From positions 2,086,028-2,150,027 of the forward strand of contig CBDBMD010000003.1 in NCBI GenBank assembly GCA_965207415.1: a stretch of DNA of 64,000 nucleotides. The letters are read 5' to 3'. This DNA comes from Dehalococcoidia bacterium. Its GTDB lineage: Bacteria; Chloroflexota; Dehalococcoidia; UBA2979. The position numbers and the translations under genes are program-made. This document shows positions 4,201 through 40,043 of this stretch, piece after piece (positions within the stretch are counted from its first letter, which is position 1; the number at the start of each line of letters is the position of its first letter). The notes beneath the pieces were generated by a model. The model was not told where the DNA came from, ran no database searches, and worked only from the letters and a program-made list of their open reading frames with translations.

Positions 4201-4402
4201 GTTGGGCAGCCTGCAAAAGCTGGGTCGGCTCGAACTCCATCACAATGAGCTGAGCGGCCCGATCCCGGTCGAGCTGGGGAGGCTTACGGATCTGATCATT
4301 CTGTACCTCAGAGACAACTTGCTTACCGGGTGCATCCCCGAGGAGCTGCGAGACATCTGGCGGAACGACCTCGGCGAGCTCGGCCTCTCCTTCTGCAACT
4401 AG
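1223..4402 (+). CDS. Secreted plant-type leucine-rich-repeat protein (1059 aa) with two LRRNT+LRR ectodomain-like arrays
   Basis: GTG start with signal peptide MTARLTALLVALVLALPGAATVDA. Two 64-aa N-terminal modules, with nt 1378..1476 identical to 1570..1668. Two copies of an LRRNT-like cap (GSVASDRAALVAxYEATxG..W..W.GVT.D..GRVT.L.L), each followed by about 17-20 24-residue repeats LxxLxxLxLxxNxLSGPIPxELGx. Each array ends with a Cys cap (LSGCVP...DLGLPFC and LTGCIP...LGLSFCN). Confidence 0.8.
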   Translation: MTARLTALLVALVLALPGAATVDAQGAGGETDVIEVRVAARRLLNGNTEFATQQRQADGSWGERLLPRARFFPASTRVGRWLASSPLTVRPSGGSGAAEIRVAARLLADGRMEFAAQQRQADGSWGERLLPRARFFPASTRVGRWLASTPLTVTLRLPGSVASDRAALVAFYEATNGSNWESSSNWLSDRPLGEWHGVTTDDSGRVTELRLLNSRLAGSLPAELGGLSSLEVLWISDSPRGRQLGGPIPVELGRLTNLRALIISNISLSGPIPAEIGRLTNLRTLDLGHNQLSGPIPIAVGNLSSLGTLGLEQNKLSGPLPVELGRLSELRQLEVGWNQLSGPIPIELGTLSNLEWLDLGGTNQLSGRIPAEFGSLTNLKHLDLSGNRLTGPILAELANLTNLRELNLWGNQLTGPIPTEFGSLTNLERLYLGRNRLTGPILAGLGNLTNLRELNLSWNQLTGPIAPELGALRGLESLYLSGNALSGSIPPELGALRGLRSLSLTANALSGPIPPELGALRGLESLYLSENVLSGPIPAELGSLGNLRRLGLDGNELGGPIPAELGNLIKLDGLNLQMNRLGGPIPAELGNLTAVATLELSDNDLSGSIPSALGSLISLERLTLGGNELSGCVPNALEDVPENDLTDLGLPFCSPVTVTQPAKGSVASDRAALVALYEATGGPGWTNSAKWLSHAPIGTWFGVTTNEDGRVTALALDDNRLAGPIPPELGSLTQLRTLGLSSNELSGPIPAALGRLANLLLLDLSINELSGPLPVELGDLTNLSTLHLRDNQLSGPIPAELGRLSNLQWFNLGGGNQLNGLIPVQLGNLTKLGWLNLAENELSGPIPLELGNLTNLVELRLSGNQLSGTIPVQLGGLAFLQELWLGGNKLSGAIPAELGGLTNLWSLHLGGNKLSWPIPAELGNLTRLRNLHLFHNQLSGPIPTELGDLANLWTLDLADNALSGPIPTELGRLTNLRTLLIQHNELSGPIPPELGSLQKLGRLELHHNELSGPIPVELGRLTDLIILYLRDNLLTGCIPEELRDIWRNDLGELGLSFCN
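1378..1668 (+). repeat. Intragenic tandem duplication (192-bp period, 99 bp perfectly identical) inside the secreted LRR gene
   Basis: 1378..1476 and 1570..1668 are identical and encode QQRQADGSWGERLLPRARFFPASTRVGRWLAS twice. Confidence 0.85.
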
Positions 4403-7146: not shown

Positions 7147-9429
7147 TCAGTTGCAGAACGGCAGCCCAAGCGCGGCAAGGTCATTGTTCGGCCTGCCCCG
7201 CAACTCGACAGGTATGCAGCCGCTCAGCTCATTGCCCCTGAGAAGCAGCACTTGCAGGTTGCGAAGGGCGCCCAGTTCGGGCGGGATCGGCCCGCTCAAC
7301 TGGTTGTCGCGGAGATACAGCTCTCGCAGGTTGCTGAGGCCGCCTAACTCGGGCGGGATCGGCCCGCTCAACTGGTTGTCGCGGAGATCCAGGTCTAGCA
7401 GGTTGCTGAGGCCACCCAGCTCAGCCGGGATCGGCCCGCTCAACTCGTTGCCCCCGAGATCTAGGTCTTGCAGGTTGCTGAGGCCACCCAGCTCGGCCGG
7501 AATCGGCCCGCTCAACTGGTTGCCCCCGAGATCCAGGTCTTGCAGGTTGCTGAGTGCGCCCAACTTGGCCGGGATCGGCCCGCTCAACTCGTTGCCCCCG
7601 AGATCCAGGTCTTGCAGGTTGCTGAGGCCACCCAGCTCAGCCGGAATCGGCCCGCTCAGTTGGTTCTCGCCAAGATTCAGCAGGTCGAGGGTGGCGAGGC
7701 CGCCCAGCTCCGCCGGGATCGGCCCGCTCAGTTGGTTCTCGCCAAGATTCAGCAGGTCGAGGGTGGTGAGGCCGCCCAGCTCCGCCGGGATCGGCCCGCT
7801 CAGTTGGTTCTCGCCAAGATTCAGCAGGTCGAGGGTGGCGAGGCCGCCCAGCTCCGCCGGGATCGGCCCGCTCAGTTGGTTCTCGCCAAGATTCAGCAGG
7901 TCGAGGGTGGTGAGGCCGCCCAACTCGGCCGGAATCGGCCCGCTCAACTGGTTGGTCTCGAGCCGCAGCGTCACCAGCTTGGCAAGGTCGCCGAGCTCGG
8001 CCGGAATCGGCCCGCTCAACTGGTTGGTCTCGAGCCGCAGCGTCACCAGCTTGGCAAGGTTGCCGAGCTCGGGCGGGATCGGCCCGCTCAGCTGGTTGTT
8101 GTAGAGCTCCAACTCTGTCAGGTGGGGAAGGCCGCCGAGTTCAGGCGGGATCGGCCCACTCAACTGGTTGTTGTAGAGCTCCAACTCTGTCAGGTGGGGA
8201 AGGCCGCCGAGTTCAGGCGGGATCGGCCCACTCAACTGGTTGTCTTCGAGCCACAGGGCCACCAGATTGGCGAGGCCGCCCAGCTCGGCCGGGATCGGCC
8301 CGCTCAACTGGTTGCTCGCGAGATGCAGCTGTTCCAGATTGCCGAGGTCTCCCAGCTCGGCCGGGATCGGCCCACTCAACTGGTTCTTGTTGAGATACAG
8401 CAGTTCAAGGCGGATGAGGCCGCCCAGCTCACCCGGAATCCGTCCGCTCAACTGGTTGCTGTTGAGATCCAGTATTTCCAGATCGCTGAGGCCGCCCAGC
8501 TCGGCCGGGATCGGCCCACTCAGCTGGTTGTGGGAGAGGTCCAGCCATTCCAACTGGATGAGTCTAATCAACTCAGCAGGGATCGGCCCGCTCAGCTGGT
8601 TGTGGGAGAAGTCCAGCCATTCCAACTGGATGAGTCTAGTCAACTCAGCAGGGATCGGCCCGCTCAACTCGTTGAAGTGGAGAGCCAGCCATCGCAGGTT
8701 CGTGAGGCCGCCGAGTTCAGCCGGAATCGGTCCGCGCAAATGGTTCCCGATCAGAATCAGCTCTATGACCCGACCGCCGTCAGCGGTGACACCGTGCCAC
8801 TCGCCGATCGGTCGGTCGGTCAGCCAGTTCGTGGTGTTCGCCCAGTCCGGTCCACCCGTCGCCTCGTAGAGCGCGACAAGGGCGGCTCGGTCCGAGGCGA
8901 CCGAGCCCGGTGCAGGTGTCACGTCTGGGGTCGACGTCGACGTTGGTGTGGCCGTCGGCGTGGGCGTAGCTATCGAAGTCGGGGACGGCGTCGGGGTGGC
9001 CGTCGGAGTCGGAGTAGGCGCGGCTGTGGCTGTCGCCGGCGGCGCCTGCGCGAGCTGCTGCTCGCTGCCATCGAGGTCAGCGAGGACGATGAGCACGACC
9101 GCCACCGCGGCCACCGCCGCCGTGCCGGCCGCCGCCACGCCCGCCCACACGAGCACGCGCCCGAGGGGTTCGAGCGCCCCGGGCAGCGCGAGCAGCCCGA
9201 ACAGCCGCCGCCGCGGCTCGGGACGCCAGGCGGCGAGCTGCCCGCGGTTCTCGAGTCCCAGCTTCCCGAGCATGTTCGAGATGTGGAACTTGACCGCGTC
9301 GAGGGTGACGCCGAGCCGCACCGCGATCTCGGCGTTCGTGCCGCCTCGGCGCAGCTCTTCGAGCACGCGCAGCTCGGCCGGGGTGAGGATGCCGGGATGT
9401 GGCGGGCGGCCCCGCCCTCGCTGCGTCAT
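7147..9429 (-). CDS. Membrane-anchored one-component regulator: N-terminal LuxR-type HTH, single TM helix, extracellular plant-type LRR domain (about 22 repeats)
   Basis: N-terminus LTPAELRVLEELRRGGTNAEIAVRLGVTLDAVKFHISNMLGKLGLENRGQLAAW matches the LuxR/FixJ HTH. The hydrophobic span VLVWAGVAAAGTAAVAAVAVVLIVLA follows, then a Thr/Pro linker. An LRRNT-like cap (GSVASDRAALVALYEATGGPDWANTTNWLTDRPIGEWHGVT) and LxxLxLxxNQLSGPIPxELGxL repeats come next. The C-terminal cap is LSGCIPVELRG..NDLAALGLPFCN. Confidence 0.8.
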   Translation of the reverse strand: MTQRGRGRPPHPGILTPAELRVLEELRRGGTNAEIAVRLGVTLDAVKFHISNMLGKLGLENRGQLAAWRPEPRRRLFGLLALPGALEPLGRVLVWAGVAAAGTAAVAAVAVVLIVLADLDGSEQQLAQAPPATATAAPTPTPTATPTPSPTSIATPTPTATPTSTSTPDVTPAPGSVASDRAALVALYEATGGPDWANTTNWLTDRPIGEWHGVTADGGRVIELILIGNHLRGPIPAELGGLTNLRWLALHFNELSGPIPAELTRLIQLEWLDFSHNQLSGPIPAELIRLIQLEWLDLSHNQLSGPIPAELGGLSDLEILDLNSNQLSGRIPGELGGLIRLELLYLNKNQLSGPIPAELGDLGNLEQLHLASNQLSGPIPAELGGLANLVALWLEDNQLSGPIPPELGGLPHLTELELYNNQLSGPIPPELGGLPHLTELELYNNQLSGPIPPELGNLAKLVTLRLETNQLSGPIPAELGDLAKLVTLRLETNQLSGPIPAELGGLTTLDLLNLGENQLSGPIPAELGGLATLDLLNLGENQLSGPIPAELGGLTTLDLLNLGENQLSGPIPAELGGLATLDLLNLGENQLSGPIPAELGGLSNLQDLDLGGNELSGPIPAKLGALSNLQDLDLGGNQLSGPIPAELGGLSNLQDLDLGGNELSGPIPAELGGLSNLLDLDLRDNQLSGPIPPELGGLSNLRELYLRDNQLSGPIPPELGALRNLQVLLLRGNELSGCIPVELRGRPNNDLAALGLPFCN
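7400..8700 (-). repeat. Near-identical 72/144-bp tandem repeats inside the LRR array (recent repeat expansion)
   Basis: Several consecutive LRR units are nearly identical at nucleotide level (for example ETNQLSGPIPAELGDLAKLVTLRL x2, GENQLSGPIPAELGGL(T/A)TLDLLNL x4, GGN(E/Q)LSGPIPA(E/K)LG(G/A)LSNLQDLDL x3). Confidence 0.75.
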
Positions 9430-13572: not shown

Positions 13573-15189
13573 TCAGCTGCTGACGTCGTCACTGTCGTCA
13601 CTGTCCTCGTCGCTTCCGGTCTCCGGCGTGGGCGTGTCGATGCCGTCCGAGTCCGTGCCGTCGTTGTCCGTCGGCGTCGGCGTGTCGATGCCGTCTGAGT
13701 CGGTACCGTCGTTGTCTGTCGGCGTCGGCGTGTCGATGCCGTCCGAGTCCGTGCCGTCGTTGTCCGTCGGCGTTGGCGTATCGATGCCGTCCGAGTCCGT
13801 GCCGTCGTTGTCCGTCGGCGTCGGCGTGTCGATGCCGTCGTGGTCGGTGTTGGCCTCGGTGTCGAAGCCGTCGCCATCCGTCGTCGGCGTGTCGAACCCG
13901 TCGTTGTCCGTCGTCGTCGGCGTCGGCGTGTCGATGCCGTCGTGGTCGGTGTTGGCCTCGGTGTCGAAGCCGTCGCCATCCGTCGTCGGCGTGTCGAACC
14001 CGTCGTTGTCCGTCGTCGTCGGCGTCGGCGTGTCGATGCCGTCGTGGTCGCTGTTGGCCTCGGTGTCGAAGCCATCACCATCCGTCGTCGGCGTATCGAA
14101 CCCGTCGTTGTCCGTCGTCGTCGGCGTCGGCGTGTCGATGCCGTCGTGGTCGGTGTTGGCCTCGGTGTCGAAGCCATCGCCATCCGTCGTCGGCGTGTCG
14201 AACCCGTCGTTGTCCGTCGTCGTCGGCGTCGGCGTGTCGATGCCGTCGTGGTCGGTGTTGGCCTCGGTGTCGAAGCCATCGCCATCCGTCGTCGGCGTGT
14301 CGAACCCGTCGTTGTCCGTCGTCGTCGGCGTTGGCGTGTCGATGCCGTCGTGGTCGGTGTTGGCCTCGGTGTCGAAGCCGTCGCCATCCGTCGTCGGCGT
14401 GTCGAACCCGTCGTTGTCCGTCGCGTCCTGGAGTCCCTGTTGCAGGCGCACGACCGGCTCGGGCGTGTCGATGCCGTCCGAGTCCGTGCCGTCGTTGTCC
14501 GTCGGCGTGGGTGTGTCGATGCCATCCGAGTCCGTGCCGTCGTTGTCCGTCGGGGTCGGGGTGTCGATGCCGTCGTAGTCGGTGTACGGGGTGTTGACGC
14601 CGTCGCCATCGGTCGAGGGGGTATCGACGCCGTCGTAGTCCGTGTAGGCGGTGGCGACGCCGTCGTCGTCGGTCAGCGGTGTATCGACGCCGTCGTAGTC
14701 CGTGTACGGCGTCGCGAACCCGTCGTTGTCGGTGTACGGCGTGTCGATCCCATCCTCGTCGGTGTAAGGGGTGTCGATGCCATCGCGGTCCGTGTCGGGC
14801 GTGTCGATGCCGTCGTCATCGGTTGGAGTCGGGGTGTCGACGCCCTCTGCGTCGGTCGGAGGAGTGCTGAAGCCGTCGTAGTCGGTGTACGGAGTATCGA
14901 CGCCATCGTCGTCGGTGTCGGGCGTGTCGATCCCGTCGTAGTCGGTCTCGGGCGTGTCGTAGCCATCGTCGTCGGTGGGCGTCGGCGTGTCGTCATCATC
15001 GTCGTCGTCGTCACCACTGTCGTCATCGTCACCAGCAAGCATCACGGCGATACGCGATAGCAGGGCAGCGTAGTCCGTGGTGTCGTTCACGTCGCCCGGC
15101 ACGCCGGCTCCCACGCCGCGCGACACCATGGCGAGCGCCAGCACGAGCGAGAGCGTGAGCGACAGCAGCTTGAGGGCACGAGACCGCAT
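13573..15189 (-). CDS. Secreted, highly acidic tandem-repeat protein with Ca-binding-like D-x-D-G-x-D motifs (TSP type-3-like)
   Basis: ATG at 15189 with a GGGAGG RBS 8 nt upstream. Signal peptide MRSRALKLLSLTLSLVLALAMVS. Then poly-Asp and dozens of DTPxTDxDGxDTP repeats (34-aa and 16-aa units). The stop lies about 70 bp before the kinase-like gene. Confidence 0.7.
   Translation of the reverse strand: MRSRALKLLSLTLSLVLALAMVSRGVGAGVPGDVNDTTDYAALLSRIAVMLAGDDDDSGDDDDDDDDTPTPTDDDGYDTPETDYDGIDTPDTDDDGVDTPYTDYDGFSTPPTDAEGVDTPTPTDDDGIDTPDTDRDGIDTPYTDEDGIDTPYTDNDGFATPYTDYDGVDTPLTDDDGVATAYTDYDGVDTPSTDGDGVNTPYTDYDGIDTPTPTDNDGTDSDGIDTPTPTDNDGTDSDGIDTPEPVVRLQQGLQDATDNDGFDTPTTDGDGFDTEANTDHDGIDTPTPTTTDNDGFDTPTTDGDGFDTEANTDHDGIDTPTPTTTDNDGFDTPTTDGDGFDTEANTDHDGIDTPTPTTTDNDGFDTPTTDGDGFDTEANSDHDGIDTPTPTTTDNDGFDTPTTDGDGFDTEANTDHDGIDTPTPTTTDNDGFDTPTTDGDGFDTEANTDHDGIDTPTPTDNDGTDSDGIDTPTPTDNDGTDSDGIDTPTPTDNDGTDSDGIDTPTPTDNDGTDSDGIDTPTPETGSDEDSDDSDDVSS
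13600..14600 (-). repeat. Coding tandem repeats (102-bp and 48-bp units)
   Basis: Repeated GTCGATGCCGTC... blocks are visible by eye. They generate the spurious plus-strand ORFs 13628..14578, 13773..14597 and 13840..15060. Confidence 0.85.
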
Positions 15190-17111: not shown

Positions 17112-18409
17112 GCGACGCACCTCCGCTGCCGGACTTCGCGGCGAGCCTGGACGGCGCGCCGATCCTCGATCGCGTGCGCATCGTCGAGGTCGGCGACCTC
17201 GGCGAGGTCGCCGGGCGGCTGCTGGCCGACGTGGGCGCGGACGTGATCCGCGTCGAGCCGCCCTCGGGCGCGACCTCCCGCCACATCGGGCCCTACCCCG
17301 GCGACGAGCCGGGCGTCGAGACGTCGCTGCGCTTCGCCGCGCACAACGCGAACAAGCGCGGCGTCACGCTGGACCTCGAGCACGCCGAGGGCCGCGAGCT
17401 GTGGCGGCGGCTCTGCGAGAGCGCCGACGTGGTGATCGACGGCTCCGGCCACGGGGTCCTCGACGGCCTCGGCGCGGGCTGGGAGGCGCGGTTGGCGGAC
17501 GGCTGGGCGGGCCCGCGCGTGTGGTGCTCGATCACGCCGTTCGGCCGCGAGGGGCCGTGGGCCGGCTGGGCCTCGAGCGACCTCGTCCAGCTCGCGCTCG
17601 GCGGGCCGATGATGAGCACGGGCTACACGGACCACGAGTTGCCGCCGATCCGCGGGGGCTTCGACCACTCCTACTGGATGGGCGGCGAGTACGCGGTGGT
17701 CGGCATCCTCGGCGCGCTGTTCGGGCTGGACGCGGGAGCGGCCGAGGGGCCGGAGCTGGTCGACCTCGCGATCCACGACGCGGTGAGCGCGACGACCGAG
17801 GGCGCGTTCCCGAGCTGGGAGTACCGCCGCGAGATCAACCAGCGCGCCACGGGCCGCCACTCGGCGCCCGGCCCGACGCCGGAGATCCAGTTCCCGACCA
17901 TCGACGGACGCCACATGAACGTGATCGGCGGTGGGCAGCCGCGCTCCGCGCGCTACCTCGACGACATGCTCGACTGGATGGACAAGTACGACGCCGCCGA
18001 GGACCTGCGCGAGCCGCGCTACCGCGCGGCGATCTTCGCGGCGCGCAACGAGGCCGAGGAGGAGCGCAAGCGCTTCTCCGAGGTGACCAAGCGCTTCGTC
18101 GCGATGCTGACGACGGAGGAGGCCTACCGCGGCGGGCAGGGGATGCACTTGCCATGGGGCATCGTGCGCCGGCCCGAGGAGAACCTCGACGACCCGCACT
18201 GGACGGACCGCGAGAGCTTCGCGCCGATCGAGCTGCCCGACGGGCAACAGGCACGCCTCCCCGTCGGGCCGTACCGCTTCGAGGGCGTCCCGCGCGGGCT
18301 GCCGTGCCGCGCGCCGCTGCTCGGCGAGCACAACCACGCCGTCTACCACGGCGAACTTGGCGTCCCCGCCGAGGACCTGCCGGGGCTCTCGGAGCGCGGC
18401 GCGATCTAG
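17108..18409 (+). CDS. CoA-transferase family III paralogue, translationally coupled to the upstream paralogue
   Basis: The ATG overlaps the upstream stop (ATGA) and follows GGAGG. Sequence VRIVEVGDLGEVAGRLLADVGADVIRVEPP... Confidence 0.8.
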   Translation: MSDAPPLPDFAASLDGAPILDRVRIVEVGDLGEVAGRLLADVGADVIRVEPPSGATSRHIGPYPGDEPGVETSLRFAAHNANKRGVTLDLEHAEGRELWRRLCESADVVIDGSGHGVLDGLGAGWEARLADGWAGPRVWCSITPFGREGPWAGWASSDLVQLALGGPMMSTGYTDHELPPIRGGFDHSYWMGGEYAVVGILGALFGLDAGAAEGPELVDLAIHDAVSATTEGAFPSWEYRREINQRATGRHSAPGPTPEIQFPTIDGRHMNVIGGGQPRSARYLDDMLDWMDKYDAAEDLREPRYRAAIFAARNEAEEERKRFSEVTKRFVAMLTTEEAYRGGQGMHLPWGIVRRPEENLDDPHWTDRESFAPIELPDGQQARLPVGPYRFEGVPRGLPCRAPLLGEHNHAVYHGELGVPAEDLPGLSERGAI

Positions 18410-19188
18410 CCTCTTCGATTCTTCGGAGCCAGGCGCGCGTCCTTCGTGGGGGGCGCTGTCTCGATCGGGCGCGAGGATGCCTCGCAGGCCCCCACACCCC
18501 CATCCCGGACGAGCACGCGCTGCGCGCGGCTCGGACCCACCCACCCGCCCCGGATTTTCTTTCTCTGTGGGGGCTGCGCCCCCACGCCCCCTCGGCTCCG
18601 CCGCCAGCCCGCTTCGTGGCTGCGCCCCCACGCCCCCTCGGCTCCGCCGCCCCGCTTCGTGGCTGCGCCCCCACACCCCCTCGGCTCCGCCGCCGGCCCG
18701 CTTCGCGGCTGCGCCCCACACCCCCTCGGTCCGCCGCTCCGTGTTTCCGCCCTCCGTCCCTTCCGTCGCTCCGCCCCTACCCCCTTTCCGTCATTCCGGC
18801 GAAAGCCGGAATCCAGGCGGGACAGCGGCGGGGCGCGCGCCTTCCCCCGGCGAGGGTGAGGGCGCCCACGCCCCGCCGGGAACGTCCGACGGCGCAACAA
18901 CCCTTCGAGTCAGCAGCCAGGCCGGCGAGCCCCCTCACCCCAACCCTCTCCCCCATGAGAGGGGGCCGGAATCGAGGGCGCACCGAACCCCCGGAAGCCC
19001 CCCTCACCCCCGCCCTCTCCCCTGGCGGGAGAGGGCGGGGGTGAGGGGGACCGGGCGCAGCCCGTCCGAGGAGGCAACGGACCGACGAGGGCGCGGCGGC
19101 GGCTGGATAACCAAACATTAACGCGCCATCAGCACCGGAAACGCCCCGCGCGCTTGCGGGGCCGGGAGGCGGCGGCGAGACTGGGGGT
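18410..19188. repeat. Intergenic island of GC-rich REP-like palindromic elements, including a 4x tandem array of about 45 bp (18568..18742) and a 21-bp perfect hairpin (about 18999..19049)
   Basis: Shared modules CCCCCACACCCCCATCCCGGACGAGCACGCGCTGCGCG..., GTGGGGGCTGCGCCCCCACGCCCCCTCGG, and CCCTCACCCCCGCCCTCTCCCCTGGCGGGAGAGGGCGGGGGTGAGGG. These recur at 25081..25727, 31061..31546 (inverted) and 36644..37030. Confidence 0.75.
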
Positions 19189-19881
19189 ATGGCTCGCGTG
19201 CTGGTAGTCGAAGACGACGCCGCGATCCTCGAGACGGTCGCCTATAACCTCGGACGCGAGGGCTACGATGTGGTCACCGCCGCCGACGGCGTCTCGGGAT
19301 TGCAACTCTCGCGCGAGACCGAGCCGGACCTGATCGTGCTCGACCTGATGCTGCCGCGCATGTCCGGCCTCGATGTTTGCCGCGTGGTGCGCGAGGAGCG
19401 GCCCGTGCCGATCCTGGTGCTGACCGCGCGCAGCGCCGAGGGCGACAAGATCGCCGGGCTGGACCTCGGCGCCGACGACTACGTCACCAAGCCGTTCTCG
19501 ATGCAGGAGCTGATCGCGCGGGTGAGCGCGATGCTGCGTCGTGACCGCATCTCGCGCGAGGCTGCCGGCGGGGTCAACGGCGGGACGCTACGCGGCGGCG
19601 GAATCGAGCTCAGGCCCGACGCGCGCGAGGTACGGCGCAACGGCGAGGTCGTGCGGCTGCGTCCCAAGGAGTTCGACCTGCTGGAGTGCCTGATGCGCCA
19701 CCCGCGCCAGGTGCTGGCGCGCGATCGCATCCTGGAGCAGGTCTGGGGCTACGAGTTCGGCGGCGGCACGCGCACCGTGGACGTGCACATGCGCTGGCTG
19801 CGCCAGAAGCTCGAAGCTGCGCCCTCGAAGCCGCAACACCTCGTGACGGTGCGGACCGTGGGCTACAAGTTCGAGCCCTGA
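19189..19881 (+). CDS. Response regulator, OmpR/PhoB family
   Basis: Receiver domain (VLVVEDD...LIVLDLMLP...DDYVTKPF) plus a winged-helix C-terminus (VDVHMRWLRQKL...VRTVGYKF). Confidence 0.9.
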   Translation: MARVLVVEDDAAILETVAYNLGREGYDVVTAADGVSGLQLSRETEPDLIVLDLMLPRMSGLDVCRVVREERPVPILVLTARSAEGDKIAGLDLGADDYVTKPFSMQELIARVSAMLRRDRISREAAGGVNGGTLRGGGIELRPDAREVRRNGEVVRLRPKEFDLLECLMRHPRQVLARDRILEQVWGYEFGGGTRTVDVHMRWLRQKLEAAPSKPQHLVTVRTVGYKFEP

Positions 19882-23295: not shown

Positions 23296-25080
23296 TTGAT
23301 GACCACCACCGTCCGTGCCGACACCCCCGGCTTCGTGATTCCGATCCTCGAGGACGAACTCGCAGACTTCACCACCGAGGCGACGGAGTTCCTCGACGGT
23401 AACCGCGACATGCTGGACTTCACCAAGTTCCGGCTGCGCCAGGGTGTCTACGGTCAGCGTCAGGCCGACCGCCAGATGATCCGCGTCAAGCTGCCCTTCG
23501 GCGGGGTCACCTCGGACCAGCTCGACGCCTTCGGCGAGGTCGCCGAGCGCTTCACGCCGCTGCGCAAGGGCCACCTCACCACGCGCGAGAACGTGCAGTA
23601 CCACCACGTCCCCCTCGACGAGACGCTCGAGCTGCTGCAGGTGCTCGGCCGCGCCGGCCTCTCCACGCGCGAGGCCTGCGGCAACACCGTGCGCAACGTC
23701 ACCGGCGACCCCTGGGCCGGCATCCGCGACGACGAGCCGTTCGACGTCACCCCCTACGCGGGCGCCTTCGTGCGCTACTTCGTGCGCAGCGAGCTGACGC
23801 AGCTGCTGCCTCGCAAGTTCAAGGTCGCCTTCTCCGGCAGCGACGAGGATTCCGCGCTGACGCAGATCCACGACCTCGGCTTCATCCCCGAGATCCGCGA
23901 GGTCGACGGCGTGCCCACCAAGGGCTTCCGCATCGTCGCCGGCGGCGGGCTCTCGATCATGGCGAAGCACGCCGTGGTTCTGCGCGAGTGGGTCTCCGTC
24001 GACGAGTACCTCAGGCACTCGCACGCCGTGCTGCGCGTCTTCAACGACGCCGACGAGCTGCGCAAGAACCTCGCCAAGGCGCGCATCAAGTTCCTCGTCC
24101 ACCGCGTGGGCGAGGAGGCGTTCCGCGCGATGGTCGACGCGGAGCTCGAGGGCGAGTGGGCGCAGGCCGACGCCCTGCCCGACCCGCTGCTCTTCCTCGA
24201 CGACGAGGAGGCCGACGCCCCGGCCCCGCCCGGCGACGCGCCGCAGCCCACCGACGCCGACCGCGCCACCTTCGAGGAGTGGGCGCGCACCGCCGTGAAG
24301 GCGCAGCGGCAGGCGGGCTACGCCGCCATCGAGGTGCAGGTGCCGCAGGGCGACCTCTCGCCGGAGCAGTTCCACGGCCTGGCCACGATCATGCGCGAGT
24401 ACGGCTCGGGCCGCGCCCGCACCACGCCCTGGCAGAACATCGTGCTGCGCTGGATCCCGAACGAGTCGATCTACGCCGTCTGGCTGGCGCTCGGCAAGCT
24501 CGGCCTGAACGGCGGCGGCATCCTCGAGATCGAGGACGTGGTGAGCTGCCCGGGCACGGACAGCTGCAAGCTGGGCATCACCAGCTCGATGGGCCTCAAC
24601 CGCGCGGTCTCCGAGCACATCCGCTCGCTGCAGATCACGGACCCGCTGACGCGGCGGATCCTGATCAACGCCAGCGGTTGCCCCAACTCGTGCGGCCAGC
24701 ACCACATCGCGAACATCGGCTTCCACGGCGCCGCCATCAAGTCCGGCGATCGCCAGGCCCCGGCCTACCACGTGTTCATCGCCGGCAACCGCCGCACCGG
24801 GCAAGACCTGCGCCTCGGCACGCTGATCAAGGCGCGCCTGCCCGCCAAGCGCGTGCCGGACGCCGTCGAGCGCTTCATCCGCCTCTACGAGGCGGAGCGC
24901 AGCGACGGCGAGGAGTTCAACGACTACTTCGACCGCGTCGGCAAGGCCCCGTTCGAGGAGGCCGTGAAGGACCTGACGCTGCCGCCGGAGTTCTCGGTCA
25001 AGACGATGGACGAGTTCATCGACTGGGAGCGCGAGGGCCTCTACGTCCTCGAGCGCGGCGAAGGCGAGTGCGCCGTCTAG
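23296..25080 (+). CDS. sir: Ferredoxin-dependent sulfite (or nitrite) reductase hemoprotein
   Basis: Nitrite/sulfite reductase ferredoxin-like and 4Fe-4S/siroheme domains with Cys motifs SCPGTDSCKLG and CPNSCGQHH. Confidence 0.8.
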   Translation: MMTTTVRADTPGFVIPILEDELADFTTEATEFLDGNRDMLDFTKFRLRQGVYGQRQADRQMIRVKLPFGGVTSDQLDAFGEVAERFTPLRKGHLTTRENVQYHHVPLDETLELLQVLGRAGLSTREACGNTVRNVTGDPWAGIRDDEPFDVTPYAGAFVRYFVRSELTQLLPRKFKVAFSGSDEDSALTQIHDLGFIPEIREVDGVPTKGFRIVAGGGLSIMAKHAVVLREWVSVDEYLRHSHAVLRVFNDADELRKNLAKARIKFLVHRVGEEAFRAMVDAELEGEWAQADALPDPLLFLDDEEADAPAPPGDAPQPTDADRATFEEWARTAVKAQRQAGYAAIEVQVPQGDLSPEQFHGLATIMREYGSGRARTTPWQNIVLRWIPNESIYAVWLALGKLGLNGGGILEIEDVVSCPGTDSCKLGITSSMGLNRAVSEHIRSLQITDPLTRRILINASGCPNSCGQHHIANIGFHGAAIKSGDRQAPAYHVFIAGNRRTGQDLRLGTLIKARLPAKRVPDAVERFIRLYEAERSDGEEFNDYFDRVGKAPFEEAVKDLTLPPEFSVKTMDEFIDWEREGLYVLERGEGECAV

Positions 25081-25727
25081 ACCCTCCGGCCCCCTCTCCC
25101 CTGGCGGGAGAGGGCGGGGGTGAGGGGGTCGGCGCGCCAGCGCCGCTCCGAACGCACAACCGACTGACCGAAGCCAGACGCGCGTCTGCTGCGGGGGCGC
25201 AGTTCCGATCTGACGCGAGGATACCTCGCAGGCCCCCACACCCCCATCCCGGACGAGCACGCTGCGCGGCTCCGGCCCACCCACCCGCCCTCGGAGTTTC
25301 CTTCTGTGGGGGCTTCGCCCCCACGCCCCCCTCGGAACTTTCGAGGGCGCACCGTCCGGCCCCCTCTCCCCTGGCGGGAGAGGGCGGGGGTGAGGGGGTC
25401 GGCGCGCCAGCGCCGCTCCGAGCGCACAACCGACTGACCGAAGCCAGGCGCGCGTCCTTTGTGGGGGGCTACGCCCCCACGCCCCCATCCCGGACGAGCA
25501 CGCGCTGCGCGCCGCTCTGGCCCACCCACCCGCCCTCGGAGTTTCTTTCTGTGGGGGCTTCGCCCCCACGCCCCCCTCGGAACTTTCGAGGGTGCACCGA
25601 TCCGGCCCCCTCTCCCCTGGCGGGAGAGGGCGGAGGGTGAGGGGGTCGGCGCGCGAGCGCCGCTCCGGGCGCACAACGGTCCTCCTAAGCCGGGATGAGG
25701 GCGCCCCGCCCCGTGTAGGCTTGAGGC
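25081..25727. repeat. Intergenic REP-like island; about 260-bp composite unit present twice in tandem
   Basis: 25085..25345 and 25345..25660 are near-identical and include the hairpin CCCTCTCCCCTGGCGGGAGAGGG. Confidence 0.75.
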
Positions 25728-26773: not shown

Positions 26774-27844
26774 ATGAACCGGTCACCGGGCAGATCGCAG
26801 AGCCGCCGCCGCTTCCTCCAGCTCGCCGCGACGAGCGGCCTCGGCGGGCTGTTGCTCGCCTGCGGCGCGGGCGATGACACGGCCGAGCGGACCGCCGTCG
26901 CACCCACGCGGAGTCCGGCGCCGACGGCGACGCCCACCGCCGTCGCGACGCCGGCGCCCACGCCCACCGCCACTCCGACGCCCACGCCCTCCCCCACTCC
27001 CGCTGCGACCTCGACGCCAACGCCGACTGCGACTCCCACACCCGTGCCGACGCCGGAGCCGACTCCCGAGCCAACGCCGTGGCCGGCCGGCCGCGAGGAG
27101 ATCGCGCTGCTGGAGGGCACGGAGTGGGAGAACCCGCTGGTCGCCCACCACAGCGGCGAGGAGGGGCCGGCCGTGCTCGTCCTCGGCGGGGTGCACGGCA
27201 ACGAGCCGGGGAGCTGGCTCGCGACCGAGGAGATCGTGGAGTGGCAGCCCGTGCGCGGCAGCCTGATCGTGATCCCGCGCGCCAACATCGTCGCCACCCG
27301 CGTCGGCGAACGCACGCTGCCCGAGCTCGGCGACCTCAACCGGCTCTACCCCGGCTCCGACGACGCCGAGCTGCCGATGTCGCGCATGGCGGCGCAGATC
27401 GTCGAGGTCGCGCGCCGCTACCGCGTCTCGCTCGTCCTCGATCTGCACGAGTCGTGGGGGTTCTACGTCGAGCGCGGGTCGAACAGCGGCACGGCGTTCA
27501 TCGGCCAGACGATCACGGGCGGACCCGGAACGGACAGCGAGGCCGCCACGCGCATCGCCGAGGACTTCAACGCGCAGGTGGAGATCGAACGCGATCAGCT
27601 GGTCGCGCGGGACCGGAGGAGCTGGGGCTCCTCGACTTCTCCGGACGGGCCATCATTCGATGACACCAGTGGCTGGAGCTGGCGGCCGGGGCGCGGCGGC
27701 AGCTCGCTCTCGCTGGGCAACTACGTGGAGGGCCTGACGCCGATCCTCGTGGAGATGGGGCAGCAGAACCAGGCCCTCGAGCGTCGCGCCGGGCTGCACC
27801 AGCTCGTGACGCGCGTCGCCCTCATGCAGCGCGGGATGCTGTAG
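26774..27844 (+). CDS. Tat-signal lipoprotein, succinylglutamate desuccinylase/aspartoacylase (AstE/AspA) family zinc deacylase-like
   Basis: [21 protein letters not shown], a Pro/Thr linker, and [13 protein letters not shown]. Confidence 0.65.
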
Positions 27845-32800: not shown

Positions 32801-33745
32801 CTAGCGAAGCAGCGCCGAGTCCGGTGGCACATGGTGTTCGATCTCGCCCTGATGGTCGAGCAGGATCACCCGCGAGCGGAAGCGCCAGACGCCGTCGACG
32901 CGCTCGAAGGCGTCGTGGTAGCGACCGACGGCGATGATCTGGAGCGGCAGATCGCGGGTCGCCTGCATGACGGTGAAGTAGGAGCGGGCGGTCGCCGTGC
33001 CCGCCTCCTCGTCCGGCTCGATCAGCACGTTGGTCGTGACGTGCTTCGTGCGCGGGCTGCCGTCGTGCATGCGGAAGCTGCTGCGCAGCGCCTCGGCCAG
33101 CGCCGCGCCGCCGAGCGGCGTCCCTTCCGGCCCGTGCTGCCGGCCGCCGTGCGCGAAGATCTCGCCGGCCCCCTCGAAGTCTCCGAGGTCGATCCGCTCC
33201 GCGTAGCTGAAGATCAGCGTCTCGACCGCCGCGTGCACCTCGTCGGGGACGGGCATCGGCGGAATCTCAGCGAGCGGCGGGCCAAGCACAGGCACGTCGT
33301 ACGGCAACTCGCCCGCCTGGTACCCGAGGATGTGCTGCGAGAGGTCTCCGCGGGTGTCGAGCATGCTCAGCCGGTCGGTGAAGCACCACTCGCCCTCGAT
33401 ACGCTCGAAGCGGTCGTAGTAGCGGCCGCTACCGACCAGCCGCAGCGGCATGGTCGGCGTCGCCTGGAAGAGCGAGAAGTAGGAGCGGGCCCGGGCCGCC
33501 CCGGCAGCGTCGTCGATGTCGATCATGATGTTGGTCGTCATGTGGCGCGTGCCGGGCGAACCGTCGTGCGTGAGGATCCGCCGCTTGCGGTTCGCCGCCA
33601 TCTCCGCGCCCGCGTGCGAGGATCCGAGGGACGAGCGAAACGGGCCGTGCGCGAAGATCTCGCCGACCGTGTCGTGCTCGGCAAGGTCCGTGAAGCGCGC
33701 GTAGCGCATCATCACATCGCGGATCGCGTCGCGGCTGTCCGTCAT
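32801..33745 (-). CDS. Tandem SnoaL-like (NTF2-fold) domain protein
   Basis: Two homologous halves, each with ...GEIFAHG...HDGSP.TKH.TTN..I......A...SYF... ATG with a GGAGGG RBS. Confidence 0.7.
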   Translation of the reverse strand: MTDSRDAIRDVMMRYARFTDLAEHDTVGEIFAHGPFRSSLGSSHAGAEMAANRKRRILTHDGSPGTRHMTTNIMIDIDDAAGAARARSYFSLFQATPTMPLRLVGSGRYYDRFERIEGEWCFTDRLSMLDTRGDLSQHILGYQAGELPYDVPVLGPPLAEIPPMPVPDEVHAAVETLIFSYAERIDLGDFEGAGEIFAHGGRQHGPEGTPLGGAALAEALRSSFRMHDGSPRTKHVTTNVLIEPDEEAGTATARSYFTVMQATRDLPLQIIAVGRYHDAFERVDGVWRFRSRVILLDHQGEIEHHVPPDSALLR

Positions 33746-33791
33746 GGGCCCTCCACCCCGGCGGGACCGTATGAGTGCGCCGCGAGGGCCG

Positions 33792-34757
33792 TCAAGCGCG
33801 CGAGCCGCCGCCCGCGCGGAGGTGCGCGCTGAGGTCGCCCTCCATGTCCGTCTGCACGCGCCGCTCCGCGAAGCGCCAGACGCCATCGACACGCTCGAAG
33901 CGATCGCGGTAGCGACCGCTGATGATCGGCTGGAGCGGCAGCTCCGGCGTCTGCTGCAGCACGACGAAGTAGGAGCGTGCGAGGCCGCTCCCGGCCTCCT
34001 CGTCGACCTCGACGGCGACGTTGGTGGTGACGTGCTTGGTGCGCGGGTTGCCCTCGTAGAGCCGGACCGCGCCGCGCAGGCCCTTCGCGAGCCCCTCGCC
34101 GCGCAGCTCGTAGCTCCCGCCGTCGGCCGTCTCCCCGACGAACGGCCCGTGCGCGAACAGTGCCCCGACGCCCTCGAAGTCCGCGAGGTCGATCCGCTCG
34201 GCGTAGGTGTAGATCAGCGCCTCGATCGCGTCCGCCGCGTCCGGAGGCGGAGGCAGCGGCCGCAGCTCGGCCGCGGACGGGCCGCGCAGCGCCAGCGAGG
34301 GCTGCCGCCGCGGGGCGGCGCGCAGGAAGCCGCCCACGTCGCCCGAGAGGTCGAAAATGCTGACGCGCTCCTCGAAGCGCCACTCGCCGTCCTTGCGCAC
34401 GAAGTCGTCGTAGTAGCGGCCCGCGCCGACGACGCTGAGCGGTTCGCCGGGGGGCTGCTTGAGCATCGCGTAGTAGGAGCGGGCGCGGGCCGTGCCGGCC
34501 GCGGCGTCGATGGCGATCAGCAGGTTGCTGGTGAGGATGCGCGTGCGCGGGGTGCCGTCGTCGTGCAGGCGGATGCCGCGCGCGCGGTCGGCCGCAAGCT
34601 CGGCGCCGCCCAGGGAGCGGCCCATCGTCGAGGAGAAGCGGCCCTTCGCGAACAGCTTCCCGATGCCCTCGAAGTCCGCGCCATCCTGCAGCCGCGGGTA
34701 GGCGTGGACGAGCGCGACGATGGCGGCGCGGTGTGCGGCAAGGCTCGCGGAGGACAT
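33792..34757 (-). CDS. Tandem SnoaL-like (NTF2-fold) domain protein, paralogue of the preceding gene
   Basis: Same two-half architecture (GALFAHG...EGNPRTKHVTTNV). Confidence 0.7.
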   Translation of the reverse strand: MSSASLAAHRAAIVALVHAYPRLQDGADFEGIGKLFAKGRFSSTMGRSLGGAELAADRARGIRLHDDGTPRTRILTSNLLIAIDAAAGTARARSYYAMLKQPPGEPLSVVGAGRYYDDFVRKDGEWRFEERVSIFDLSGDVGGFLRAAPRRQPSLALRGPSAAELRPLPPPPDAADAIEALIYTYAERIDLADFEGVGALFAHGPFVGETADGGSYELRGEGLAKGLRGAVRLYEGNPRTKHVTTNVAVEVDEEAGSGLARSYFVVLQQTPELPLQPIISGRYRDRFERVDGVWRFAERRVQTDMEGDLSAHLRAGGGSRA

Positions 34758-34886
34758 CGGCGGCACGCTAGGCAGCGCCGCGCGCGCTCGTCAACCTCGA
34801 GCGGGCCGCCGTGCGGCGGCGGTTGCGGGATTCGCGCGGTAGGATGAGCCTCGCGCGGAGCGCCGCGCGCCGGAGGGTGATCGACG

Positions 34887-36169: not shown

Positions 36170-36643
36170 GTGAGCGGCAGCACCGAGGGCGAGGACCCTC
36201 GCGCGCTGCTGCGCCGCGCGATGCGCCTGCACAGCGACGACGAGATCGACGCCGCCCTCGCGGCTGCGGAGGGGGCTGTCGCGCTCGCCCCCGACTTCTG
36301 CGAGGCGCACGCCTACCTCGGCAACACGCTGGTCACCCGCAAGCGCCGCTTCGCCGACGGCCTGGCCGCGCTCGAGCGCGCCGTCGCGCTTTGCCCCGGC
36401 GACGCCGCGATCCTCTACACGCTCGGCTGGTGCCGCGAGTTCGTCGCGCACGCCCTCGAGCACCCGCGCCAGCGCCAACCGCACCAGCCCGTCGCGCAGG
36501 ACGCCCCCACCCTCTACACCGCCACCACCGACATCCTCCGCCGCGCCCTCACCCTCGACCCCGACTCCCAGCTGCGCGGCGACATCGAGGACATCCTCGA
36601 CGTCGTCGCCAACGCCACCGGCGTCCCCTGGGACGAGGAGTAG
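36170..36643 (+). CDS. TPR-repeat protein
   Basis: GTG start. EAHAYLGNTL...LYTLGW helix-repeat signature. Confidence 0.55.
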   Translation: MSGSTEGEDPRALLRRAMRLHSDDEIDAALAAAEGAVALAPDFCEAHAYLGNTLVTRKRRFADGLAALERAVALCPGDAAILYTLGWCREFVAHALEHPRQRQPHQPVAQDAPTLYTATTDILRRALTLDPDSQLRGDIEDILDVVANATGVPWDEE

Positions 36644-37030
36644 GCAGTCCGGCCCCCTCGCCCCTGGCGCGAGAGGGTGGGGGTCCCCCGGAGGCTGCTC
36701 CTCGAACCTCCGCGGCCAGATCCGGTCCCCTCTCCCCGAGGGAGAGGGCGGAGGGTGAGGGAGACGGCCAACGCCGCGAAGCGCATCGAACCCCGGGACT
36801 GGCCCCGCGGGCTGCGGCTCGAGCGCCGGACCGGAGGGGTGTGGGGGCTCTGCCCCCACAGGCAGGGGCGCGGGGCGAAGCCCCGCACCTTGAGGGCGGG
36901 TGGGTGGGTCCCCTCCCTTCCGAGCGCCGGACTCCCTCGACGAACCGATGCCTCGCGACAGCCCGTCGCCCCGAGCGCGGACAGCAACCCGCCTCGCCTG
37001 TACCGTGTGACCCGCACACGAGGACCAACC
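36644..37030. repeat. Intergenic REP-like island
   Basis: Hairpins CCCCTCGCCCCTGGCGCGAGAGGGTGGGGG and GGTCCCCTCTCCCCGAGGGAGAGGGCGGAGGGTGAGGG, plus an inverted copy of the GGGGGCTCTGCCCCCAC module. Confidence 0.65.
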
Positions 37031-37898: not shown

Positions 37899-38249
37899 AT
37901 GGTGTACGTGCGGAAGCAGCGGTCGCCACGCGCCGCGATCCCGGAAGGGAAAGAAGCAGAGGCGCTGCTCCAGAAGGTCATCGACGCGTTCGGCGGCGAG
38001 AAGGCGATGGCGTCTATCGATGCCGACCGCGATGCGGGCTGGGACTACCTCCAGGCGCACTACGAAGAACTGCTCGCCACATACCCCGGCGAGAGCATCG
38101 CGCTGCACTGCGATCGGGTCGTCGTGCACGCCACCAGCCAGGAGGACTTCAGCCGCCTGCTCGAGGATTACCTCGAACGGACGGGCACCCATCCCAGCGC
38201 GCTTGAGATGCACTACCTGGACACCGACCCGCCGCTGCTCGCGGTGTAA
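37899..38249 (+). CDS. Small hypothetical protein (116 aa) immediately upstream of the retropepsin-like gene
   Basis: ATG 37899 starts MVYVRKQRSPRAAIPEGKEAEALLQKVIDAFGGEKAMASIDADRD... with balanced composition. The overlapping frame-1 ORF 37858..38670 is R/S/T-rich junk until the protease domain. Confidence 0.5.
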   Translation: MVYVRKQRSPRAAIPEGKEAEALLQKVIDAFGGEKAMASIDADRDAGWDYLQAHYEELLATYPGESIALHCDRVVVHATSQEDFSRLLEDYLERTGTHPSALEMHYLDTDPPLLAV

Positions 38250-38257
38250 CCAAACGC

Positions 38258-38670
38258 GTGCCGAGAGTTCGTGGTTTCCGCGCCAACGGCCGTCCCTACG
38301 TACATGCACGGGTGTTCTCCCCCGCCTGCAGGCTGAGGCTCGCATCCGCTTCCTCCTCGACACTGGCGCCGACCGCTCACTGATTCACCTGAATGACCGT
38401 CGCGCATTCGATGCGGAGTCCGTCCGCACCGGCACCGGGTTGACGTCGGGCCTCAGCATGTCCGGCATCGGCGGCGGATCGAAGGACTACGGCATCGAAG
38501 AGGCCGTCTACGCGTTCCAGGACCAGGACGGTGCGCTTTGGGCACTCCCGGGCGCGGCGCAGATCGCCCTCGATCCGGCGGCGCCAGGCCTTCCCTCGCT
38601 GCTGGGTCGCGATATCCTCGACCTGATGCTGTTTTGCATCTCGGATCGTGAGATCACGCTCGATTGGTAG
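38258..38670 (+). pseudogene. Retropepsin-like (clan AA, DTGA) aspartic protease, reading frame interrupted by a 1-nt frameshift in a C5 run near 38317..38325
   Basis: Frame 2 from GTG 38258 gives VPRVRGFRANGRPYVHARVFSP. Frame 1 from about 38320 gives RLQAEARIRFLLDTGADRSLIHLNDRRAFD...LLGRDILDLMLFCISDREITLDW. Frame 1 has no start codon upstream of the catalytic DTGA. Confidence 0.55.
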
Positions 38671-38690: not shown

Positions 38691-40043
38691 GTGACCATTC
38701 TCCAGACCTTCGAGGACACGCACCCCGGCTCGCGGGAGCTGGCGGAGCGCGCTGCCTCCGTCTTCCCTTCCGGCGTCACGCACGATGTGCGCGCCTTCGA
38801 GCCGTTCCCGATCTACGTCGAGCGTGCGCAGGGGCCGCGCAAGACGGACGTCGACGGGCACGAGTACGTCGACTACATCGGCGGGCACGGGGCGCTGCTG
38901 CTCGGGCACAACCACCCCGAGGTGCTGGCGGCGATCCGCGCGGCGCTCGAGGACGGTACGCACTTCGGCTCCTCGCAGGCGCGCGAGCTGGAGTGGGGCG
39001 AGCTGGTGCTGCGCATGGCGCCCTGCGCCGAACGCGTGCGCTTCACCTCGTCCGGCACCGAGGCGACGATGATGGCGCTGCGCCTCGCGCGTGCCTTCTC
39101 GGGCCGCAACCGCGTGATCAAGCTCGCCGACCACTTCCACGGCTGGCACGACCTCGCCGTCGGCCAGCTGCGCGAGAGCGAGACGCGGGCCAGCGCCGCC
39201 GGCGTGCCCCCCGGCTTCTACGACGACCTGACGATCGTGCCGTCCGGGGATGTCCCGGCGCTCGAGCAGGCGCTCGCGCCTCGCGACGTGGCGGCGGTGA
39301 TCCTCGAGCCGACGGGCGCGCACTGGGGCCTCCACCCGCTCAGGCCGGACTACCTGCGGGCGGCGCGCGAGCTGACCGAGCAGGCCGGGACGCTGCTGAT
39401 CATGGACGAGGTGATCACCGGCTTCCGCATGGCCCCCGGCGGCGCGCAGGAGCGCTTCGGCGTCACCGCCGACCTCGCGAGCTACGCGAAGATCCTCGCG
39501 GGCGGCCTGCCGGGCGGCTGCGTGGCCGGCCGCGAGGACGTGATCTCGATGCTCGAGTTCCGCGCGGGCGACGAGGTCTGGAACCGCCGCCTGCGCGTGC
39601 CGCACCAGGGCACCTACAACGCGCAGCCGCCCGCCGCCGCCGCCGGCATCGCCGCGCTGCGCATCATCGAGGCGGGCGGCCAGACGGAGCGGGCCGACGC
39701 AACCACGGCGGCGCTGGTGCGCGGCCTCAACGCGCTCTTCGCCGACCGCGCCGTGCCCGGCTCGGCCTTCGCGGTCTCCTCGATGTGGCATCTCAACCTC
39801 GGCTACGACGCGCCGCGGCCCTCCGATGTGGAGTGGGACGCCGCCGAGGAGGCTCGAGGCGTGGACGCGGCGCTAGCAGTCCCGCTGCGGCAGGCGCTGC
39901 TCAACCACGGCGTGGACCTGATGGGCACGGGCGGCATGGTTTCGGCGACGCACGGCGAGGCCGAGATCGAGGACACGCTCGCCGCCTTCGACGCCGCGAT
40001 GTCCGACCTCCGCGCCGAGGATTTGCTCGGCTCCCGCGGCTGA
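38691..40043 (+). CDS. Class-III aminotransferase (glutamate-1-semialdehyde aminomutase-like)
   Basis: GSSQARELEWGELV..., the LIMDEVITGFR motif, and the PLP-lysine region SYAKILAGG. Confidence 0.85.
   Translation: MTILQTFEDTHPGSRELAERAASVFPSGVTHDVRAFEPFPIYVERAQGPRKTDVDGHEYVDYIGGHGALLLGHNHPEVLAAIRAALEDGTHFGSSQARELEWGELVLRMAPCAERVRFTSSGTEATMMALRLARAFSGRNRVIKLADHFHGWHDLAVGQLRESETRASAAGVPPGFYDDLTIVPSGDVPALEQALAPRDVAAVILEPTGAHWGLHPLRPDYLRAARELTEQAGTLLIMDEVITGFRMAPGGAQERFGVTADLASYAKILAGGLPGGCVAGREDVISMLEFRAGDEVWNRRLRVPHQGTYNAQPPAAAAGIAALRIIEAGGQTERADATTAALVRGLNALFADRAVPGSAFAVSSMWHLNLGYDAPRPSDVEWDAAEEARGVDAALAVPLRQALLNHGVDLMGTGGMVSATHGEAEIEDTLAAFDAAMSDLRAEDLLGSRG

Follow-up and report, generated by a model that had tools for sequence, protein, structure and literature searches.

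A single missing base, rather than programmed frameshifting, divides a predicted retropepsin-like protease gene beside a DUF5678-type gene in a Dehalococcoidia bacterium

Stand-alone retropepsin-like proteases of bacteria are, to our knowledge, little understood, and few of them (APRc, RimB and secreted enzymes of Pseudomonas) have been characterized. APRc is reportedly membrane-embedded and autoprocessed. This enzyme, also called ApRick, comes from Rickettsia conorii and has a bacterial version of the retropepsin-like fold (PDB 5c9b; PMC4140852). RimB of Pseudomonas is a small cytoplasmic retropepsin-like endopeptidase that, in the RimABK system, works with proteins encoded by neighboring genes (PMC11957791). 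Prokaryotes also carry single-domain clan AA peptidases (TIGR03698 clan_AA_DTGF, TIGR02281, COG5550/COG3577), which are non-viral ORFs of about 120-150 aa (Llorens et al. 2009, PMC2642776).

The gene that we describe here lies in a 64-kb stretch of DNA (the window, meaning the whole of the DNA analyzed; 71.5% G+C) and is predicted, from its sequence and from the structural model of a close ortholog, to encode a retropepsin-like (clan AA) aspartic protease whose predicted fold is a confident one. As assembled, the gene is divided between two reading frames, and the product obtained by restoring one missing base is referred to below as the repaired protein. Relatives of the repaired protein were recovered at E = 4e-80 to 1e-35 and the family profile matched FIV retropepsin at E = 3e-8, in an alignment that spans DTGAD, the GIGG flap and LLGRD; because of these E-values and the match to FIV retropepsin, we do not regard the domain as a chance match. 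The preliminary description had placed a retropepsin-like domain in an open frame 1, and this holds: the frame (...LPRLQAEARIRFLLDTGADRSLIHL...GIGGG...LLGRDILDLMLFCISDREITLDW) continues from the DTGA domain to the TAG at 38668-38670, and the family and fold matches agree with it. The catalytic motif, F-L-L-D-T-G-A-D, is read in frame 1, and its D, T, G and A do not vary in alignments of 21, 38 and 77 relatives. Further downstream, S-G-I-G-G and L-L-G-R-D align with the flap and the LLGRD of FIV protease, and G70, G117 and R118 are invariant.

Searches with standard domain models gave a more mixed picture. Against Pfam, the repaired protein passed the cut-off for PF00077 (RVP) marginally, with 23.0 bits against 20.7 and E = 1e-4. 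Two of the models put forward for checking in the preliminary description, PF13650 and PF13975, stayed below threshold (15.5 against 24.3 and 13.7 against 28.2 bits, respectively), and the third, TIGR02281, was likewise not matched; an NCBIfam search of the window protein at E <= 1 returned nothing, TIGR03698 included. Several relatives do bear precomputed matches to PF13650, PF13975 or PF00077, and when the relatives were searched against NCBIfam at E <= 0.01, TIGR03698 was matched by 3 of 21 (best E = 1e-5) and TIGR02281 by 1 of 21, the close orthologs of the window protein matching neither.

An AlphaFold2 model of P0001, an ortholog 95% identical to the repaired window product, had a pLDDT of 89.9 and a pTM of 0.84. 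A Foldseek search of the PDB with this model returned retropepsins or ApRick for all of the top 20 matches; these included the proteases of FIV, EIAV, avian retroviruses, HTLV and M-PMV as well as Rickettsia ApRick, with E = 2e-5 to 2e-4 for FIV, EIAV and Rickettsia.

The window family thus has the same single-lobe fold, which must dimerize, as the retroviral retropepsins (MEROPS A2, e.g. FIV and EIAV; Foldseek E = 2e-5, probability 1.0), together with the same hydrophobic-hydrophobic-D-T-G-A-D, G-I-G-G flap and L-L-G-R-D. Unlike them, its members are stand-alone bacterial genes of 137 aa rather than part of a gag-pro-pol polyprotein, have an extra conserved N-terminal hairpin (GF..GRPYV..R), and are normally written in one frame with a start codon of their own and paired with a DUF5678 gene. 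The window protein is like the prokaryotic clan AA peptidases in its small size, although it lacks a match to TIGR03698 or TIGR02281. Compared with RimB, the partners differ (RimK and RimA for RimB, DUF5678 in the window, where no rimK-like gene lies nearby), and the two are, as far as seen, no more closely related in sequence than at the clan level. ApRick matched the P0001 model with a Foldseek E of 1.6e-4 and a TM of 0.58-0.62; in contrast to APRc, the window protein, by reading of its sequence, lacks a signal peptide and membrane segments, and it is paired with a small partner gene dedicated to it.

That partner gene lies upstream on the same (+) strand at 37899..38249 and is intact, with 116 codons and a TAA. 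The preliminary description had it ending 9 nt before the protease start; the ORF is as described, but 8 nt intervene between the TAA and the GTG at 38258. From this GTG, codons 1-19 of the protease (MPRVRGFRANGRPYVHARV) occupy 38258..38314 (+) in frame 2, and codons 21-137 with the TAG occupy 38317..38670 (+) in frame 1, where LPRL, FLLDTGAD with the catalytic Asp35, the GIGG flap and LLGRD are found. The assignment of the N-terminal part to frame 2 was also correct. The frame-2 ORF (MPRVRGFRANGRPYVHARVF..., also given as MPRVRGFRANGRPYVHARVFSPACRL...) runs to a TGA at 38381..38383 (+), and the 41-aa product that the sequence specifies consists of 19 native and 22 out-of-frame residues. The GTG start is backed by an ATG at the same place in three related loci (L003, L004 and L088). 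A codon-usage Viterbi analysis assigned coding on the + strand to 37959-38246 and 38323-38667, with long opposite-strand ORFs handled as shadows. Rfam and tRNA scans of the 64-kb window gave no matches, and a promoter and terminator scan around the two genes gave nothing useful.

DNA alignments to other loci define where the two protease frames meet. The closest contig, L001, is from the same species and is 96.5% identical to the window over 1579 nt, with one gap only, at 38315/38316; there L001 reads GTGTATCTCCCCC and the window GTGT-TCTCCCCC (in longer form, ACGGGTGTATCTCCCCC against ACGGGTGT-TCTCCCCC). The junction allele with the A is GTGTATCTC and that without it is GTGTTCTC. The same single coding gap appears against three more contigs of this species from other samples (L089, L090 and L091, at 91-96.8% identity), and in the 4.5-kb alignment to L089 (96.6% identity) it is the sole indel within any coding region. 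All four of these same-species contigs are short-read assemblies, carry the A and are 91-97% identical to the window at the nucleotide level. A single gap at the junction was also found against five more distant syntenic loci (L087, L003, L002, L004 and L088), all of which have a Tyr or Leu codon at the position of the lesion and a continuous frame.

These alignments disagree with the earlier proposal that the frames meet within a run of five C's. That run, at 38319..38323 (+), starts 3 nt downstream of the lesion and is not where the frame changes: L001 and L089, both intact, match the window in the run and its flanks (TCTCCCCCGCCTGC), the same is true of L090 and L091 across the junction, and the intact same-species orthologs read the run as CTC CCC CGC (Leu-Pro-Arg). 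Because intact orthologs share the run, the lesion is the loss of the A from the Tyr20 codon TAT, between the two T's at 38315..38316 (+), and not a change in homopolymer length. With this base gone, codons 1-19 are read in frame 2 and those from 21 to 137 in frame 1. When the A is put back, the product has V-Y-L-P-R-L, in agreement with the family consensus [IL]-P-R-L. Repair by a sixth C, for which a comparison of orthologs had been suggested, was considered and rejected; it yields F-S-P-R-L, with Ser at a position where the family has I, L or F (Ser in 0 of 77 relatives), and the intact orthologs have five C's as well. When JGI metagenome contigs were scanned for exact copies of the two junction alleles, 0 matches to either were returned, and the scan was thus uninformative.

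Continuity of the frame in relatives bears directly on whether the two-frame layout could have a function. A search with the repaired protein returned 41 relatives, the 12 closest of which are 61-95% identical and mostly continuous ORFs of 137-138 aa; proteins of that length were recovered at 63-95% identity. The frame is open across the junction at the DNA level in nine close orthologous loci (L001, L002, L003, L004, L087, L088, L089, L090 and L091) and at the ORF level in three (L005, L006 and L007), so that continuity, which the preliminary description had proposed to look for, was found in 12 of 12 and the two-frame layout in none. The wider family comprises 3,767 clusters (50% identity) at E <= 1e-3, 1,418 of them at E <= 1e-10, and the best 150 representatives of the 3,767 each give one unbroken match to the profile, which in nearly every case begins at profile position 1-4. 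Some public protein calls are short, namely P0004 (114 aa), P0011 (123 aa), P0284 and P0286 (119 aa), and we considered and rejected the idea that they are shared frameshifts: in the DNA of L087, L088 and L089 the upstream frame is open and a late called start alone explains the short calls, and the contigs of P0284 (L090 and L091) are intact at the junction.

The preliminary description had left three explanations for the interruption, a sequencing error, a recent pseudogene and programmed frameshifting of the gag-pro kind, and the first two of these survive. In the third, a programmed -1 shift of the ribosome, or slippage during transcription, in the C-rich stretch would yield full-length protease at a regulated low level. 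In its favor, the frame downstream lies at -1 with respect to the start, re-pairing of a P-site tRNA-Pro on C CCC is in principle conceivable, and the enzyme resembles the retropepsins that retroelements place in the -1 frame of an upstream start, although this is resemblance only. Against it, the following was found: (i) the two-frame layout recurs neither among the 12 close loci nor among the best 150 clusters; (ii) the intact orthologs carry the same five C's, and the run is therefore ordinary coding sequence; (iii) among the zero-frame codons, GTG TTC TCC CCC GCC, there is no heptamer of the type X XXY YYZ; (iv) the true junction is T|T at 38315/38316 and (v) the 100 nt downstream have no stable structure. 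For the last point, a stimulatory RNA structure was sought in 38322-38421, where the minimum free energy was -26.6 kcal/mol against a mean of -29.5 for shuffled sequences (z = +0.92), and 171 of 200 shuffles folded at least as well as the native sequence. A run of five C's is also, as far as is known, too short for efficient transcriptional slippage. In contrast to a gag-pro frameshift, then, the window has no slippery heptamer, stimulatory structure or conserved two-frame layout, and what it does have is a private 1-nt deletion. As the orthologs have a continuous frame, a test that had been named in advance, and heptamer and structure are lacking while family representatives match as one stretch, the programmed frameshift reading is refuted, and we give recoding of any kind a negligible chance. 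Whether the lesion is a mutation or an error, the protease gene is an ordinary single-frame gene. As a frameshift finding the locus hardly matters, since it comes down to one missing base in one assembly, with no recoding biology.

We lean toward the view that the deletion is a real and very recent loss-of-function allele, and we infer that the base is absent from the DNA of the organism itself. The locus is a two-gene cassette, in which a DUF5678-family gene is followed after 8 nt by the ortholog of a normal single-frame, 137-codon gene for a putative cytoplasmic clan AA protease (GTG 38258 to TAG 38670). A 1-nt deletion private to this assembly, and not a recoding signal, interrupts the second gene. 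If the allele is real, translation from GTG 38258 would end at TGA 38381 after 41 codons, no protease would be made, and the intact partner gene would be left as an orphan beside a broken one.

The other surviving explanation is a consensus error, in which the organism has an intact 137-codon gene and the A was lost in a long-read MAG consensus; we take this to be a serious possibility, if somewhat short of an even chance. The source is a single MAG contig of 3.37 Mb, probably from a long-read assembly, and the related records, too, are assemblies of a long-read style, their contig names being tagged with coverage. In one sibling, L003, at 2x coverage, indels break a housekeeping aminotransferase gene, and the gene is called as two parts. 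The A is present in all of the independent short-read contigs of the species. Beyond the one base, moreover, the window protease gene is perfectly preserved, without stops and with all motifs intact. An intact remainder is exactly what an error predicts, and a very recent mutation would look alike.

Other observations weigh against an error. Long-read consensus indels mostly fall in homopolymers, and this lesion lies outside any homopolymer. The codon-usage Viterbi analysis of all 64 kb showed no second mid-gene switch of frame; because all the remaining genes of the 64 kb keep their frame, we take the quality of the window consensus to be high. Two excursions of frame in the codon model, at 8909-9045 and 26888-27087, were rejected as frameshifts, as they are Pro/Thr-rich linkers inside continuous ORFs. 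In addition, the orthologous gene in another MAG (L007; CBDFIB010000004.1) has a different 1-nt deletion (CCCATCG to CCC-TCG), the sole isolated coding indel noticed in 12 kb compared with L004. If errors fell at random, an independent lesion of this kind would have a chance of only a few percent, and it suggests that the gene is prone to inactivation, although an assembly error could likewise account for the lesion in L007. Relative to L001, nonsynonymous to synonymous differences number 6:3 in the partner, 5:5 in the protease and 5:23 in the adjacent aminotransferase gene; the counts are small, and the high ratio in the cassette points to weak constraint on it.

A further explanation would be a truncated or alternative product made from frame 1 alone, starting at TTG 38203, the non-canonical CTG 38326 or ATG 38458. 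Frame 1 is open from 37858, and the preliminary description had stated that it has no start before the catalytic DTGA. This is true of the interval between 38204 and DTGA, where no ATG, GTG or TTG occurs in frame 1, but four starts precede it (GTG 37858, ATG 38020, ATG 38032 and TTG 38203), all of them within the partner gene. A start at TTG 38203, 47 nt inside the partner gene, would extend the product by 38 unrelated residues. ATG 38458 is the start of the publicly called fragment P0287 (MSGIGGG...ITLDW, 70 aa, 38458..38670, +), a version that lacks the catalytic Asp. All of the candidates would also be without the conserved N-terminal G-F...G-R-P-Y-V strands. In the P0001 model residues 1-21 form three well-predicted strands, and G6, F7, G11, R12, P13, Y14 and V15, which are invariant or nearly so in the family, lie in beta-strands with a pLDDT of 91-96. 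Because the lesion cuts off these near-invariant residues, no truncated product should be active, and we consider this explanation very unlikely. In practical terms the lesion serves to flag annotation and quality; the gene stands in the public record as a 70-aa fragment devoid of the catalytic Asp. P0287 belongs to the same cluster as P0001 and comes from the same NCBI/ENA contig (3,372,471 bp) as P0288, the public entry for the exact sequence of the partner.

From its sequence, the 116-aa partner appears to be a divergent member of the DUF5678 family (PF18929). It has three homologs of 116 aa at 74-94% identity. On its own it does not match PF18929 at E <= 1, and the assignment is based on 28 aligned members of the partner family, 21 of which match the Pfam model (best E = 1.6e-10). 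In an hhalign comparison, the close group of the window partner matched the DUF5678-positive partners with a probability of 98.3% and E = 2e-14 over 90 columns. The window partner has S in place of W in the Y-P-x-x-W-V-A motif. Its AlphaFold2 model (pLDDT 85) predicts N-terminal helices, a beta-beta-alpha-beta unit and a C-terminal tail of low confidence, and a PDB fold search with this model gave no significant match (best E = 0.58). The extreme C-terminus, ...[FY]-L-D-T-[DN]-P-P-x-L-I-L, is the most conserved part of the partner family. A Pfam scan of the family for DNA-binding domains (HTH, RHH, AbrB) found none, and full-text literature searches (DUF5678, TIGR03698, COG5550, retropepsin-like toxin-antitoxin) returned no functional study of DUF5678 or of the cassette, and no work on retropepsin-like toxins.

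The suggestion that this ORF is a co-expressed partner of the protease is well supported by the persistence of the pair. A same-strand DUF5678-type gene lies directly upstream of the protease in 71 of 80 related GTDB loci, and in 37 of these 71 pairs the two genes overlap by 4 nt, most of the others being 0-12 nt apart. The loci are mostly in Dehalococcoidia or other Chloroflexota, with a few in Latescibacterota, Alphaproteobacteria and Spirochaetia. Across a family whose clusters number at least 3,767 (50% identity), we see a protease gene whose coupling to a DUF5678 gene is tight and often translational, and this two-gene cassette is a widespread, uncharacterized and modestly interesting module. 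Two longer members, P0217 and P0223, were considered as fusions of partner and protease and rejected, their N-terminal extensions lacking, by eye, the DUF5678 Y-P..W-V-A motif.

In its anatomy the cassette resembles a type II toxin-antitoxin system or a pair of inhibitor and protease. The features shared with the toxin-antitoxin systems are two small co-directional genes (upstream about 90-116 aa, downstream about 140 aa), the frequent 4-nt overlap, the occurrence of several copies per contig in unrelated neighborhoods, and the occasional inactivation of the downstream gene, as in the window and L007. Unlike such systems, the upstream protein has no detected DNA-binding domain, PADLOC defense models gave no credible match to the cassette, and searches of the plasmid and phage collections found no copy of the cassette, while viral contigs were nearly devoid of it, with one weak match in 2.9 million (IMG/VR). 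It is possible, although we put it forward tentatively and think it rather doubtful, that the two genes form a self-contained cassette with a regulatory role, toxin-antitoxin or inhibitor-protease in type, which has expanded in Dehalococcoidia and in which the small protein would control the protease through its strongly conserved C-terminal tail. The tail (...L-D-T-D-P-P-x-L-I-L-COOH) could then either act as a pseudosubstrate or supply a strand that prevents dimerization. If this scenario is true, the broken proteases in the window and in L007 would be examples of toxin decay. Should the cassette be a protease-inhibitor or toxin-antitoxin pair, DUF5678 would gain a function and an aspartic protease would join the repertoire of these modules. 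In the source lineage, the cassette is flanked by an alpha/beta-hydrolase gene and a class-III aminotransferase gene.

A second, independent single-base lesion was found in the protease family. In L007 (CBDFIB010000004.1), a contig carrying an orthologous protease gene, an A in GTCCCATCG at about position 6342 is deleted relative to the related contig L004, and the deletion truncates the gene close to its 3' end. The base lost is the same as that missing from the window gene, in both cases a single A followed by TC. A third contig, L003, was assembled at 2x coverage, and its aminotransferase gene contains single-base indels opposite window positions 39636 and 39753 that split the conserved 450-aa aminotransferase into calls of 410 aa and 60 aa; frameshift errors evidently do occur in low-coverage assemblies of the L003 type.

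L003 also differs upstream of the protease, where a cassette encoding Vsr, a DNA-cytosine methylase and an HNH protein has been inserted (1652-3648 of that contig). The HNH ORF runs in frame directly into the DUF5678 partner sequence, giving rise to a 302-aa call; either the two genes are truly fused, or translation of the partner now begins at an internal codon. Public calls of the protease orthologues (P0004, P0011, P0284 and P0286) place the start 14-23 codons late. The loci concerned are L087 4001, L088 418, L089 1115, L090 834 and L091 1139; in the first three of these contigs, the frame from the conserved GTG or ATG farther upstream is uninterrupted. Under-calling of the N-terminus is systematic in this protease family.

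The most conserved segment of the DUF5678 partners is the extreme C-terminus, L-D-T-D/N-P-P-x-L-I-L (the last 11 residues, encoded at 38214-38246 in the window), with the final L present in 58 of 72 proteins and the preceding I in 55 of 72. This same segment is the lowest-confidence part of the partner structure model. Together these features suggest a binding function for the tail, with the protease as a plausible target.

Compared with the same-species contig L001, synonymous differences are fewer in the partner-protease cassette (37899-38670), and nonsynonymous ones relatively more frequent, than in the adjacent aminotransferase, although the numbers are small (8 synonymous and 11 nonsynonymous in 255 codons versus 23 and 5 in 237). 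This pattern is compatible with either weak constraint on the cassette or a different history.

The window also contains several repeat-rich genes. Two leucine-rich-repeat genes, 7147-9429 (-) and 1235-4393 (+), have about 20 tandem 72-nt units, each encoding a 24-aa repeat, NQLSGPIPAELGGL...; judged from sequence, the 760-aa product appears to have, ahead of its repeats, an HTH of the LuxR type together with a membrane segment and a linker rich in Pro/Thr. The gene at 13576-15177 (-) is dense in tandem repeats with periods of 102, 48 and 30 nt and identity between copies of up to 98%. At 32840-34787 (-), repeats recur about every 500 nt and have the appearance of four paralogous domains or genes in tandem; the syntenic L087 gene contains SnoaL_4 twice.

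A GC-rich, REP- or MITE-like hairpin repeat, CCCTCTCCCCTGGCGGGAGAGGGCGGGGGTGAGGGGG, is interspersed through the window, with copies at 19013-19058, 25092-25137, 25362-25407, 25608-25653, 36655-36700 and 36727-36768; longer shared units lie at 18449-18550, 25193-25294 and 25434-25535. Every copy falls within a segment that is non-coding by the codon-usage model (18407-19194, 25069-25724 or 36641-37027), and one of them sits upstream of the cassette, some 1.1 kb away.
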